Source: an uncultured Planctomycetia bacterium
GTDB lineage: Bacteria > Omnitrophota > Gorgyraeia > VGKH01 > JBHPFN01
Reading direction: 5' to 3'
Length of the DNA: 64,000 bases
Assembly (NCBI GenBank): GCA_964406665.1
Contig: CAYOSQ010000007.1
Span: forward strand, 11,364-75,363
Below the pieces are notes generated by a model. That model was not told the DNA's origin and did not search any database. It was given only the letters and a program-made list of their open reading frames with translations. How positions within the stretch are numbered: position 1 is the stretch's first letter; the number at the start of each line of letters is the position of its first letter. Shown here piece after piece: positions 54,415-56,883 of the stretch. The position numbers and the translations under genes are program-made.

Positions 54415-56883
54415 ATGTCTTGTTTTAAAAAATTGAACAATAAATTCCTGACTTATCTGCTGATTTCAATAACTGTAATCACCATTGGGCTACATTTTAG
54501 ACTTTATCCTATCACCATCAATTTAAACAGACAAAATCTTTCTGCTTCGAGGATTGCTCTCTTCATAAATATAAAGAAAACTCTAGCCAGAAAAATTAAT
54601 GCTGCTTTCCCAAACCTTCCACAAGAAAACAAAAATGTTTTGATAAATAAAGGATTTGAAAGTTTTACAAAAAAGGATCCTGAAAAATTAAAAGCCTTGA
54701 TAGATGAATTCAAATCAAAAAATGAGAATTCATTATATAGATACTTTCTTCTTGGCTCTGATTCCTATTATTTCTATTATCTAACAAAAGAGATAGTTTC
54801 CCACGGAGCCATATCCAAACAAATAAAAAACGGAAGTTACTTTGATGTTCTTATGAGTGCACCTGGCGGCCATTGGAGGAAAATTGAAGCTCACCCCTAT
54901 TTCGGTTTTTCCATCTACAAACTATTCACTGTTTTTTCTAAAGATTTTTCTCTTCTCTGGGCTTTATCTATTGTTCCTTTAATACTTTTTACTGTCTCGG
55001 CCTTAATTTTTATTTTAATTTGTTTAAATCTAAAGATTGATAAAATTAACATTCTTTTCAGCTCTTTATTCTTTTGTCTTTCTCCAATCTTCATTCAACG
55101 CAGTTCTTTTGGTTGGTACGATAGTGACCCATACAATATTCTATTCTTGTGCCTTGCGCTTTTTATAATTCTTAAGTTAGTAAAAAATGAAACTCATATC
55201 TTCTGGTCCCTTTCCTTGGGTTTTGTTACAGGACTATATTCATTATTTTGGCAGGGCTGGGTTTTGCTACCTGCTCTGTCTTTTTCATCTATGTTTTTTG
55301 TTTTAATCATAAAGGTTATCGAAAAACAAAAATTTACAATATTATTAAAAAAAATCGGGCTATTTTCTGCAAGTTTTCTTATTTTTGCAATAATTATACT
55401 TTCTCCTAAAGGCTTCGCAAATTCTGCTTCCGATATTTCAAGCATCATCTTTGGTTTTTTTCAGCTAAATTCAAATTTATGGCCTGATATCTTCTTAACC
55501 GTCGGAGAACTAAAGTCGCCCAATGCTTTAAAGATTATTCACACATTAGGTGGCTATGTGTTTATCGGAGTTGCTGTTTTGGGTTTTATCTTATTATGCT
55601 TTGGAAGAATCAAAAATTCAGATAAAGGACAGAGTATTGTAATAGTAGTTTCGACAATTTTATGTTTATTATTAACCAGAAACGCTGAACGCTTTGTCCT
55701 CTTTTTATTAGTTCCTATTTCAATTTGTTTTGCGCTAGGAATTAATGAGATCTGGAGGGCTGTAAATACGCAGTACTCAAAAATATCCAAGTTGAGAAAA
55801 AATCATTGTAACTGTGCAGCGACTTTTACATTATCCCTACTTTTGATTTCTCCCTTTATTTACGGCCATGCAACATCTCTTTCTCAAGTCCCTCTTTTTA
55901 ACATCGTATGGAAAGATTCACTTGAAAAAATAAAGAACAAGACTGATAAATCAGCAGTAGTCAATTCCTGGTGGCCTCCTGGACACTTCATTAAAGCTAT
56001 TGCTGAAAGAAGAGTAACTTTTGACGGTGCAACAATCAACACTCCTCAGGCATACTGGATGGCTAATTTCTTTTTATCAAATAGTGAAGAAGAAGCTTTA
56101 GGCATACTAAGAATGTTAAATACCAGCAGCAATGAAGCAACTGAATTTATGATTGATAAAAGAATTCCTCTTCAGAAAGCAATACCTTTATTAAAAGAAA
56201 TAATTGTAAAAAGTAAGCAATCTGCCAAGGATACCCTGAAAAACTATTTAGATGATAAAGATATAGAGCGTATTTTAATATTAACTCATTCAAGCCCCCC
56301 TCCTTCCTATTGCCTTATTTATAATGAAATGGTGGAGAACGCTCTTGGTCTTCGGTTCGTCAAAAATTGGAATTTCAATAAAGCATTTAATATTAAGAAG
56401 GAGCGGTATGCCGCTTTAAAAAAGGGAAAGTTCTTCTGGAGGGGAACCAAAGACTATATAGGAGAGGCTTGGTCTGTTTCTGGTGGTCCAACATACATCG
56501 GAGAAGAATCTTACGAAATCTCCACTAATAATAATTCAATTCGATTTGCTAACGGAGTAATCCTAGATAAAGAATTAATGATTGCTAAAATCGATAGGCT
56601 TGAAGACAAAATATCCGGGGTTCCCCATTCCTTGCTTTATGTAAAAAATAATAAACTAATAGAGAAAAAACTTGAAAATCCGACTATTAAGCTTTCTGTC
56701 TTAATTATTCCTCATTCTAATAACAGTCAAAGTTCAATTGTTGCTCCCGCTGAAGTTCTAAAATCTATTCTTTTTAGGCTTTATTATCTTGATGGGCTGG
56801 GATTAAAAAGGTTTGAAAAGGTTATTCAAGAAGAAAACCCTTTGCTTAAAACAAGGATTTTTGTCTTTAAAATTATCTGGTAA
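54415..56883 (+). CDS. STT3/PglB/AglB-family oligosaccharyltransferase homologue with WWPPG in place of WWDYG
   Basis: EL1 GSDSYYFYYLTKEIVSHGAISKQIKNGSYFDVLMSAPGG resembles STT3 fDPYFNYRtTRFlaeeGfykfhNWFDDrAWYPlG. RSSFGWYDSDPYNILF resembles RSvAGsYDNEgIAIF. The C-terminal soluble domain NKTDKSAVVNSWWPPGHFIKAIAERRVTFDGATIN...NFFLSNSEEEALGILRML resembles [18 protein letters not shown]..[15 protein letters not shown]...SSnEeaAYkIMR.L. About 13 TM helices. Confidence 0.6.
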   Translation: MSCFKKLNNKFLTYLLISITVITIGLHFRLYPITINLNRQNLSASRIALFINIKKTLARKINAAFPNLPQENKNVLINKGFESFTKKDPEKLKALIDEFKSKNENSLYRYFLLGSDSYYFYYLTKEIVSHGAISKQIKNGSYFDVLMSAPGGHWRKIEAHPYFGFSIYKLFTVFSKDFSLLWALSIVPLILFTVSALIFILICLNLKIDKINILFSSLFFCLSPIFIQRSSFGWYDSDPYNILFLCLALFIILKLVKNETHIFWSLSLGFVTGLYSLFWQGWVLLPALSFSSMFFVLIIKVIEKQKFTILLKKIGLFSASFLIFAIIILSPKGFANSASDISSIIFGFFQLNSNLWPDIFLTVGELKSPNALKIIHTLGGYVFIGVAVLGFILLCFGRIKNSDKGQSIVIVVSTILCLLLTRNAERFVLFLLVPISICFALGINEIWRAVNTQYSKISKLRKNHCNCAATFTLSLLLISPFIYGHATSLSQVPLFNIVWKDSLEKIKNKTDKSAVVNSWWPPGHFIKAIAERRVTFDGATINTPQAYWMANFFLSNSEEEALGILRMLNTSSNEATEFMIDKRIPLQKAIPLLKEIIVKSKQSAKDTLKNYLDDKDIERILILTHSSPPPSYCLIYNEMVENALGLRFVKNWNFNKAFNIKKERYAALKKGKFFWRGTKDYIGEAWSVSGGPTYIGEESYEISTNNNSIRFANGVILDKELMIAKIDRLEDKISGVPHSLLYVKNNKLIEKKLENPTIKLSVLIIPHSNNSQSSIVAPAEVLKSILFRLYYLDGLGLKRFEKVIQEENPLLKTRIFVFKIIW

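Follow-up and report, generated by a model that had tools for sequence, protein, structure and literature searches.

A clade of Omnitrophota STT3-type glycosyltransferases with WWxPG in place of WWDYG, encoded beside a type II secretion-like operon and a serine protease gene

Can an oligosaccharyltransferase (OST) do without the residue that reads its sequon? To our knowledge, the Asp of the WWD motif reads the sequon Ser/Thr in every OST studied, from bacteria to humans. The question was raised by a gene in a 64,000-nucleotide stretch of DNA from an uncultured Planctomycetia bacterium (GTDB lineage Bacteria; Omnitrophota; Gorgyraeia; VGKH01; JBHPFN01), which covers positions 11,364 to 75,363 of the forward strand of contig CAYOSQ010000007.1 (GenBank assembly GCA_964406665.1). 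The whole stretch, with a G+C content of 34%, is called the window below, and positions are given in its numbering. The gene is a single open reading frame (ORF) at 54415-56883 on the plus strand, with an ATG start and 822 codons, and encodes an STT3/AglB-like GT-C glycosyltransferase. An earlier note on this DNA had read WWPPG at the place of WWDYG and proposed an OST with non-canonical acceptor specificity or a repurposed STT3 scaffold. The present analysis shows that the motif change is real and ancient and defines a clade, in which the pocket for reading the sequon has been lost while the enzyme is intact in other respects. Our preferred reading, with a rough probability of 0.55, is an active periplasmic glycosyltransferase that would not follow the canonical N-x-S/T reading and whose targets may be tied to the adjacent secretion machine and protease.

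The family of the STT3-like protein was established by profile and structure searches. Pfam STT3 (PF02516) matched aa 112-475 (E=4.2e-20, with 73.1 bits where the gathering score is 24.5), and the same domain was present in all homologues. A family profile built from 31 homologues and searched against the PDB returned human STT3A (E=3.6e-23), Archaeoglobus fulgidus AglB (2.2e-19) and Campylobacter lari PglB (2.1e-11). An AlphaFold2 (AF2) model, built on the 31-homologue alignment (mean pLDDT 90, pTM 0.88), showed a GT-C membrane module (about aa 1-490) followed by a periplasmic C-terminal domain (about aa 495-822) with a mixed alpha/beta core, an overall fold closest to the solved OSTs. Foldseek ranked PglB, AglB, STT3A/B and yeast STT3 first, with PglB as the top match (E=3e-20, TM 0.68 on the target, 772-784 aligned columns). 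The matches to DPY19, ArnT and arabinosyltransferases were orders of magnitude weaker and covered the membrane module only, and no Pfam match to PMT, PMT_2, ArnT-type or YfhO models was obtained at E<=0.1. Profile and structure matches thus favour the solved OSTs and rule out another GT-C family, bearing out the STT3 placement made from the letters alone; by its GT66 fold and catalytic motifs, the protein belongs to the STT3/AglB/PglB superfamily. The curated profiles of the C-terminal core stayed under threshold (PF21436, 17.2 bits against 23; PF22627, 15.8 against 27), as did archaeo_STT3 of NCBIfam (TIGR04154, 58 against a cut-off of 450); a C-terminal domain that has diverged would explain this. 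In public annotation, the relatives are named "STT3 domain-containing protein" or "dolichyl-phosphooligosaccharide-protein glycotransferase".

The WWPPG segment lies at aa 519-523, with the codons TGG TGG CCT CCT GGA at 55969-55983 (TGGTGGCCTCCTGGA). The earlier note had given this range for SWWPPGHF; it holds for the five residues WWPPG and is too short for the full segment, which spans 55966-55989. With phmmer, aa 503-571, including this segment, were aligned to STT3A 509-576, and both phmmer and the family profile set SWWPPGHFIKAIAERRVTFDGATIN in register with the STT3A block and with AglB SWWDYGHWIEAVAHRM. Since the two methods agree, the residue-by-residue match to the eukaryotic STT3 block is real. 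W519-W520-P521-P522-G523 is the positional equivalent of WWDYG, with the +2-binding Asp replaced by Pro.

The motif was tallied in 173 relatives collected from two protein libraries. WWPPG was found in 118, WWSPG in 26, WWCPG in 11, WWAPG in six and WWTPG in two, and WWD was confined to four distant outgroup proteins (P0029-31 and P0172) that carry WWDFG at about 25-29% identity. Residue conservation was taken from a 161-sequence alignment of 157 clade members and the four outgroup proteins. At column 521, the clade members have Pro (112), Ser (24), Cys (9), Ala (6), Thr (4) or Gly (1) and never Asp, which stands there in the four outgroup proteins. Pro fills column 522 in 154 of 157 and Trp column 519 in 155, and no variation occurs at W520 or G523. 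The many-homologue alignment showed WWPPG to be the column equivalent of WWDYG and conserved in the clade, with no sign of non-equivalence. Conservation of WWxPG over 157 sequences excludes a sequencing or frameshift artefact as well as chance. The idea of a paralogue beside a canonical STT3 was also rejected, as the window was found to encode no such second protein. The residue following the motif Gly is His (119) or Tyr (37), a weak hint about the donor.

The loss also appears to be old. When 1.84 billion cluster representatives (50% identity) were searched exhaustively with HMMER, 1784 relatives were obtained, 746 of them at E<1e-30, and a scan of GTDB with one genome per species found a relative in 156 species genomes. 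The best 80 of these 156 species loci (L010-L089) were used for all locus counts given below. Their labels are mostly Omnitrophota/Omnitrophica, with one Patescibacteria and a few given only as "uncultured bacterium"; many carry the placeholders "uncultured Planctomycetales/Planctomycetia", which we read as mislabels. In a rough neighbour-joining tree, the WWxPG proteins formed one clade relative to the WWDFG outgroup, with three subclades, indicating that the loss of Asp is old and derived. A profile search (alignment A1) of a 5.8-billion-protein set returned only proteins that had been collected before, and thus no sister group with WWD that stands nearer to the clade.

The Ser/Thr pocket's second wall was examined in the same alignment. 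In published structures, the WWD tryptophans and Asp hydrogen-bond the +2 Ser/Thr hydroxyl (PMC7226087), and the pocket is closed on its other side by the Lys or Ile of the DK/MI motif (defined in PMC3703281), which a kinked helix carries (PMC7226087, PMC3703281). The equivalent kinked helix here is N637-L646 (56323-56352), with N642 (56338-56340) at the second signature position; in the AF2 model, helices 637-641 and 643-650 are separated by a break at 642. The assignment of residue 642 to the DK/MI signature position was made by sequence alignment rather than by superposition. This column holds Gln (45), Lys (41), Asn (30), Ser (12), Gly (9) or Asp (9) in the clade, and Lys in all four WWDFG proteins (DMVGKAGVW). 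As aligned, neither of the two side chains that make up the +2 Ser/Thr pocket in known OSTs is left, and the DK/MI position is under relaxed selection. Two defining features of the N-x-S/T OST class, the WWD Asp and the DK/MI signature residue, are therefore absent.

The catalytic residues, on the other hand, have been kept. D116, R229, D238, E365 and R426 are invariant in all 157 clade members, and D236 is present in 156. D116 (codon GAT, 54760-54762) is the catalytic Asp of external loop 1, equivalent to PglB D56, AglB D47 and STT3A D49; it lies in GSDSYYFYY (aa 114-122), and the profile pairs "leaDsYYyy" with STT3A "hEfDPYFnY" and AglB "GGNDPWYYY". YFD (aa 142-144) and PGG (aa 150-152) follow. 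The second acidic motif, R229-x6-D236-x-D238, combines the metal-binding DxD with an Arg and corresponds to RSSFGWYDSD (aa 229-238, 55099-55128; YDSD at 55117-55128). In the profile alignment, it matched STT3A RSVAGSYDNE and AglB RSILGFNDHH, and the spacing of seven residues from the Arg to the acidic motif is the same as in PglB (R147, D154, D156); the roles of these residues have been described (PMC7226087). All of these motifs stand where the earlier note had quoted them.

External loop 5 carries T362-V-G-E365 (55498-55509), a TIXE/SVSE-type motif with V363 in 142 and G364 in 149 of the 157 sequences. The HMMER alignment to STT3A and AglB was locally wrong in this loop, as the TIXE/SVSE segment was put in an insert. 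E365 was instead matched to AglB E360 because the motifs agree (TVGE and TIAE) and the spacing to the following Arg is similar (61 residues before R426, against 66 residues in AglB), making it the candidate equivalent of PglB E319/AglB E360; this loop is of lower confidence in the AF2 model (pLDDT about 71). R426 (55690-55692), a candidate lipid-(pyro)phosphate-binding Arg equivalent to PglB R375, AglB R426 and yeast R404, was aligned by the family profile with AglB "qNRFa" and STT3A "vmvRLm". The retention of all metal-binding, amide-activating and phosphate-binding residues over 157 sequences of 27-50% identity indicates selection for catalysis. With the catalytic residues invariant and the pocket lost, the alternatives first proposed, non-canonical acceptor specificity or a repurposed scaffold, both fit what the alignments suggest.

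The STT3-like gene is the last of five co-directional genes in a run that begins at 47958, and its stop codon lies 4 nt from that of a convergent gene, the last of an operon on the minus strand. This gene (56888-57820) encodes a PilW/PilF-like TPR protein (TPR Pfam matches; TIGR02521, E=3.5e-8). In unbiased clustering of neighbouring ORFs, it was the most conserved neighbour of all, found about 1.7 kb downstream in 67 of the 80 loci. It is preceded in the operon by genes for a GspM/PilO-like inner-membrane platform protein (57830-58444; NF040576 GspM, E=4.5e-8, with weak T2SSM, T2SSM_b and PilO matches; 57-59 loci), a GspL-like PilM-PilN fusion (58446-59909; PF11104, E=4e-15; PF05137, E=1.8e-10; 58-60 loci) and the minor pseudopilin GspK (59914-60981; NF037980, E=1.7e-20; PF21687; 57 loci). 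Two minor pseudopilin-like genes (60994-62001; 203 and 130 aa) with N-terminal hydrophobic prepilin-type segments lie further upstream in the operon, and their homologues elsewhere carry N_methyl. Upstream of these are genes for a GspG-type major pseudopilin of 149 aa (62006-62455; PF08334 T2SSG in homologues; 52 loci) and a GspF-type platform protein (62470-63684; PF00482 T2SSF in homologues; 50 loci). The next open frame upstream (63694-64000, ending ...KMFE*) is cut by the window end and is probably the PilZ end of a GspE-type ATPase, by analogy with related loci where T2SSE with MshEN and PilZ lies at this place. Thus GspE, F, G, the minor pseudopilins, K, the L-like protein and M are encoded in one operon (window 56888-64000 and L001-L009, with GspE taken from the related loci).

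When the window proteins were searched against the 80 loci by tblastn, PilMN was found in 60, GspM in 59, GspK in 57, GspG in 52 and GspF in 50. The secretion genes lie 1.6-11 kb from the STT3-like gene, and the operon stands beside it in 52 of the 60 loci that have at least 6 kb of downstream sequence. The arrangement of the window was seen in every longer contig examined from clade members with 30-50% identity (L001, L002, L004, L008, L009). The secretion genes are mostly downstream, and the operon and the STT3-like gene converge in most loci. All genes of one subclade (L004/5, L008, L050, L069, L078, L080, L085) are on one strand, in the order E-F-G-minor-minor-PilMN-GspM-TPR, a divergent GT2 and DUF2304 pair, and STT3-small ORF-GspK-S41. 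The STT3-like gene of this embedded subclade sits inside the operon, with secretion genes partly upstream of it. The opposite flank is variable: L064 has AraC and a C39 peptidase there, L039 has chemotaxis genes, and others have transketolase/transaldolase. An ATP-synthase gene lies beyond GspE in one locus family. That the STT3-like gene keeps its place beside a type II secretion-like operon throughout the phylum, and beside a serine protease gene as described below, is a newly seen context and a stronger one than the neighbours named in the earlier note.

Several further features of these loci were recorded. No secretion operon was found within 10 kb in L039, L043, L048, L057, L068 and L087, where the pair of S1 protease and STT3-like genes is mostly kept; most operon-less genomes cluster in the tree, suggesting one or two losses of adjacency. 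The GspE-type ATPases of L001-L005, L008, L009 and L064 have an N-terminal MshEN and a C-terminal PilZ domain, suggesting cyclic-di-GMP control. A secretin GspD or prepilin peptidase was not seen in the window or within 10 kb in the annotated loci, the remaining genome parts not having been searched. A TPR protein with a Peptidase_MA_2 domain is encoded near the module in 29-37 of the 80 loci (window 46673-47854, minus strand; L064 18069-18872); its gene lies between the pseudopilin genes and GspF in many genomes and upstream of the GT2 gene here. The nearest relatives with WWD, represented by the outgroup protein P0029 (L006 8001-10982), are about 990 aa long with a Lys-type pocket. The L006 locus, whose neighbours are 28-32% identical to window proteins, is a GT4/epimerase/deacetylase glycan cluster without secretion genes, and a DUF2304 gene adjoins it. 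The DUF2304 and small GT2 pair also stands divergently beside the WWxPG gene in the embedded subclade (L004/L008) and may be the ancestral partner of the STT3-like gene.

The other conserved neighbour is a serine protease gene. In the window, it encodes an S41 (Ctp-type) peptidase homologue with a PDZ domain and an N-terminal hydrophobic leader (53124-54410, plus strand), whose stop codon lies 4 nt before the STT3-like start; the S41 neighbour reported earlier was confirmed by PF03572 (E=4e-34), and the match to TIGR00225 (154 bits) was below cut-off. The same gene pair is present in L001, L002, L009 and one subclade of loci. In 47 of the 80 loci, ORF clustering found an S1 family protein instead (about 255 aa, Trypsin_2, conserved GDSGGP) directly upstream on the same strand. 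Under a strict definition of adjacency (a protease gene on the same strand whose stop falls at -38 to +116 nt relative to the STT3 start), S1 was counted in 45 loci and S41 in 10, and none had both. Altogether, an S1 or S41 gene was directly upstream in 50 of the 68 loci with upstream sequence, and in five or six further loci S41 lies just downstream, after GspK. The slot beside the STT3-like gene is therefore filled by two unrelated serine-protease families in different subclades, with the window belonging to the S41 subclade. An orthologue of the STT3-adjacent S1 peptidase is nevertheless encoded in the window at 1879-2664 (plus strand; PF13365, E=9e-25), about 52 kb from the STT3-like gene; 48 of its 49 BLAST matches belong to the STT3-adjacent S1 family, with 39-45% identity in the best matches listed. 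The idea that the glycan region of about 50 kb is a simple insertion between the S1 and STT3-like genes was withdrawn, because transketolase genes that flank the module elsewhere lie inside this region here.

If the preferred reading holds, the protein would be a GT-C enzyme whose active site faces the periplasm and which uses a polyprenyl-(di)phosphate carrier as the source of the sugar or glycan it transfers. Donors could come from the AglJ/Dpm1-like GT2 enzyme at the head of the gene run or from the large upstream glycan region. The acceptor would be held between external loop 5 and the C-terminal domain. It would be a periplasmic polypeptide, since the protein retains the parts that clamp a peptide (the core unit, the WW pair, and external loop 5 with TIXE), and attack through Asn is likely because both amide-activating carboxylates are kept. 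Acceptor choice would not be tied to the canonical N-x-S/T read-out and could be relaxed at +2 or set by other features. The targets may be part of the type II secretion-like machine, for example pseudopilins such as GspK, or cargo exported through it, and the upstream protease (S41 here, S1 in most relatives) might process the same substrates. Our confidence falls along this chain, from activity through polypeptide binding and a choice not governed by the +2 hydroxyl to substrates linked to secretion and the protease.

Several observations weigh against this proposal. The link to secretion is a positional one, drawn from gene order, and the convergent orientation in most loci means that the STT3-like gene and the operon are not co-transcribed there. 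Because a single phylum supplies every locus, the counts are inflated by shared ancestry. N-x-S/T sites were mapped on alignments of the TPR, PilMN, GspK, GspM, pseudopilin, GspF, GspE and protease families, and no periplasmic family had a well-conserved site, nor was a candidate site of another kind found in the pseudopilin, GspK, GspM, PilMN or TPR families; the window GspG has no N-x-S/T and looks ordinary, as do the consensus sequences of the neighbour families. The window S41 reads TAGR (54195-54209) where Ctp proteases have TFGK with the catalytic Lys. Its subclade has T-A-G-[M/R/Y/F], with K in one, and a conserved Lys four residues later (FLKS), whereas the S41 copies of the embedded subclade keep TFGK/TYGK; the S41 homologue here lacks the usual catalytic Lys and may be inactive or use a shifted base. 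E365 is matched by motif and spacing rather than by superposition and is a candidate. Moreover, Desulfovibrio PglBs are active with NL instead of DK/MI (PMC12229607), so variation at this position alone is no proof of lost Ser/Thr reading.

The alternative that survives best, and which we regard as a credible minority view, is a general periplasmic protein glycosyltransferase whose position by the secretion operon and protease is inherited gene order with no functional link. The convergent operon, the single phylum and the operon proteins without a candidate acceptor site all suit it, as does the loss of adjacency in at least one subclade and a few single genomes (the six loci named above). 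However, the adjacency persists even between proteins of about 30% identity, whereas the opposite flank changes, and it has survived the rearrangement after which the gene lies within the operon on one strand with GspK and S41 behind it. The protease slot, held by two unrelated families in different subclades, also argues for a functional link.

It is unlikely that the protein is an ordinary N-OST which still reads N-x-S/T, with the tryptophans and the remodelled loop binding the +2 hydroxyl. The (near-)invariant W519/W520 and G523 are consistent with this alternative, and so are the members in which motif position 3 is Ser, Thr or Cys, residues able to form a hydrogen bond. Both PglB and STT3 carry glycans of their own, and conserved sequons occur in the periplasmic domain of this family as well: L-R-M-L-N569-x-S in 71 of 81 sequences and (P-I-)F-N496-x-T-W in 51 of 81. 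The window protein has N569-T-S (56119-56127), and the sequon at aa 496 is absent. However, N569 aligns with the Asp of STT3A "ELDVS", suggesting that this sequon may be structural rather than a site of self-glycosylation. The commonest residue, Pro (112/157), is unable to accept a hydrogen bond, and variation among P/S/C/A/T/G at position 3 is the pattern of release from side-chain function. The Lys/Ile partner position is unconstrained too, although the Desulfovibrio enzymes show DK/MI to be replaceable by NL (PMC12229607). Furthermore, one paper describes WWDXG as essential for function (PMC12229607), and another assigns to it the specific reading of the +2 hydroxyl (PMC7226087).

Equally doubtful is a repurposed scaffold acting on a non-protein acceptor, through ligation or extension of a surface polysaccharide, lipid-linked glycan or cell-wall polymer. 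Loss of the peptide +2 pocket would agree with such a role, and the window gene ends about 50 kb of glycan genes that include other GT-Cs (PMT_2, GT87). On the other side, the protein retains what known enzymes clamp a peptide with (the whole C-terminal core, the WW pair, the kinked helix and the TIXE-type loop); in most genomes the gene lies outside any glycan cluster, in a compact protease-STT3-secretion block among housekeeping genes (transketolase, ATP synthase). Finally, it is highly improbable that the protein is a pseudo-enzyme without catalysis whose role in the secretion apparatus is that of a structural part in the membrane. The lost hallmark residue and the sub-threshold Pfam C-terminal core models might point to this, but the catalytic residues are invariant across 157 sequences at 27-50% identity.

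The genes upstream of the S41 homologue may bear on the donor side. The co-directional run is headed by a methyltransferase-GT2 fusion (47958-49313, plus strand; PF00535, E=2.8e-21), a candidate AglJ/Dpm1-like polyprenyl-phosphate glycosyltransferase. Its best NCBIfam match was TIGR04182 AglJ (E=5.5e-26, far below cut-off), AglJ being an archaeal dolichyl-phosphate hexosyltransferase. The next gene encodes a weakly matched PMT_2-like GT-C glycosyltransferase (49324-50814, plus strand; PF13231, E=0.006; NCBIfam LA_3751/LA_3752 family, E=1.6e-9, below cut-off). A Dpm1-like synthase and a PMT-like GT-C had both been expected at this place: the former was confirmed by PF00535 and the latter weakly by PF13231. 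The third gene (50940-53111, plus strand) encodes a 723-aa membrane protein with no assigned family, for which the label "transglutaminase-like" had been suggested. This label found no profile support; nine family members gave no match in Pfam, and sequence and profile searches gave none in the PDB. The invariant columns of the family (alignment A2), D399-C400-D401, H440 and P456-T457 (FEPT in the window; 52128-52310), form a Cys/His/(Glu)-Pro-Thr set reminiscent of transglutaminase-like or papain-like cores, and the family is present in seven of the 80 loci.

The 103-bp divergent gap between the TPR-peptidase_MA and GT2 genes contains two sigma-70-type promoter matches, a perfect one on the minus strand (47857-47884, 12/12) and one of 11/12 with TG on the plus strand ahead of the GT2 gene (47927-47956). 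They end 2-3 nt from the start codons and would give leaderless or near-leaderless transcripts; the count of promoter matches over the region was not above that of shuffles.

The remainder of the window upstream (445-47854, about 47 kb) consists almost wholly of glycan biosynthesis genes, including GDP-mannose dehydratase, GT4, GT2, GT9, GT87 and PMT_2 enzymes, an ABC exporter, many methyltransferases and five radical-SAM enzymes. A Wzx-type flippase-GT2 fusion is encoded at 3161-5644 and a UDP-galactopyranose mutase (Galf) at 22729-23835. NeuB (17395-18429), a cytidylyltransferase (14484-15185) and two UDP-GlcNAc 2-epimerases (15185-16369 and 41959-43128) would together provide a putative nonulosonic-acid route. 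No initiating transferase of the Bac_transf or MraY type was seen among the ORFs scanned in this region.

A more specific form of the preferred reading was also considered: an Omnitrophota STT3-type enzyme which has abandoned the sequon read-out and glycosylates type II secretion/type IV filament components or cargo together with a dedicated protease, with the site set by structure or a new motif and perhaps not at Asn. We hold this form tentatively, as a possibility less probable than its opposite. If true, this would add a new type of protein glycosylation to those of bacteria, with an OST that is by nature independent of the sequon. In any case, the WWxPG clade contradicts the assumed universality of WWD, and a phylum-wide clade of hundreds of sequence clusters, with catalysis kept and both pocket walls lost, is a natural experiment on how acceptors are encoded. 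The bacterial lineages with STT3-type protein glycosylation that are known to us are Campylobacterota and Desulfobacterota. If the Omnitrophota enzymes are active, they would extend this type of glycosylation to a phylum beyond these few lineages and could offer transferases with relaxed or new site rules for glyco-engineering, and the pairing with secretion and protease genes would point to glycosylation in the surface and secretion biology of very small, possibly predatory bacteria.

A literature search found no paper on WWPPG-type variants in this context and none linking Omnitrophota with STT3/OSTs or STT3 with bacterial type II secretion; two Omnitrophota genome papers treat secretion loci near giant genes and not this enzyme. 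Comparison was made with systems known from other organisms. Pilin-linked glycosylation is carried out by the PglL/TfpO O-OSTs and by TfpW, a GT-C enzyme encoded next to pilA, and PglL reportedly affects type II secretion in Vibrio cholerae. The possible likeness is that of a periplasmic lipid-linked-glycan transferase encoded beside type IV filament genes. However, PglL/TfpO and TfpW belong to the Wzy_C/O-antigen-ligase family or the arabinosyltransferases and not to STT3, and the system described here is known from genes alone. Among the STT3-type enzymes, the family profile placed the protein closer by sequence to AglB/STT3 than to PglB. Archaeal AglB (A. fulgidus AglB-L, PDB 3WAJ/7E9S; AfAglB-S2 core, 3VU0) has WWDYG and a Lys-type DK pocket, both absent here, and differs further in that the present host is bacterial and the AF2 model has a long helical insertion in external loop 1 (helices 36-103). 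Eukaryotic STT3A/STT3B work in a multi-subunit complex with WWDYG and DxxK and are 11-17% identical to the STT3-like protein. PglB of C. lari and C. jejuni (PDB 3RCE/5OGL), a single-subunit enzyme, is likewise of the bacterial periplasmic type, with the same catalytic residues and a similar DGxx motif after the WW loop (DGGK, against DGAT here), but it has WWDYG and MxxI and requires D/E-x-N-x-S/T. The Desulfovibrio-type PglBs, with WWDWG, DGGR, NL for DK/MI and relaxed acceptor rules (PMC12229607), are a precedent for pocket changes that shift specificity. Those enzymes retain the WWD Asp and need N-x-S/T (PMC12229607), whereas the Omnitrophota clade is without the Asp.

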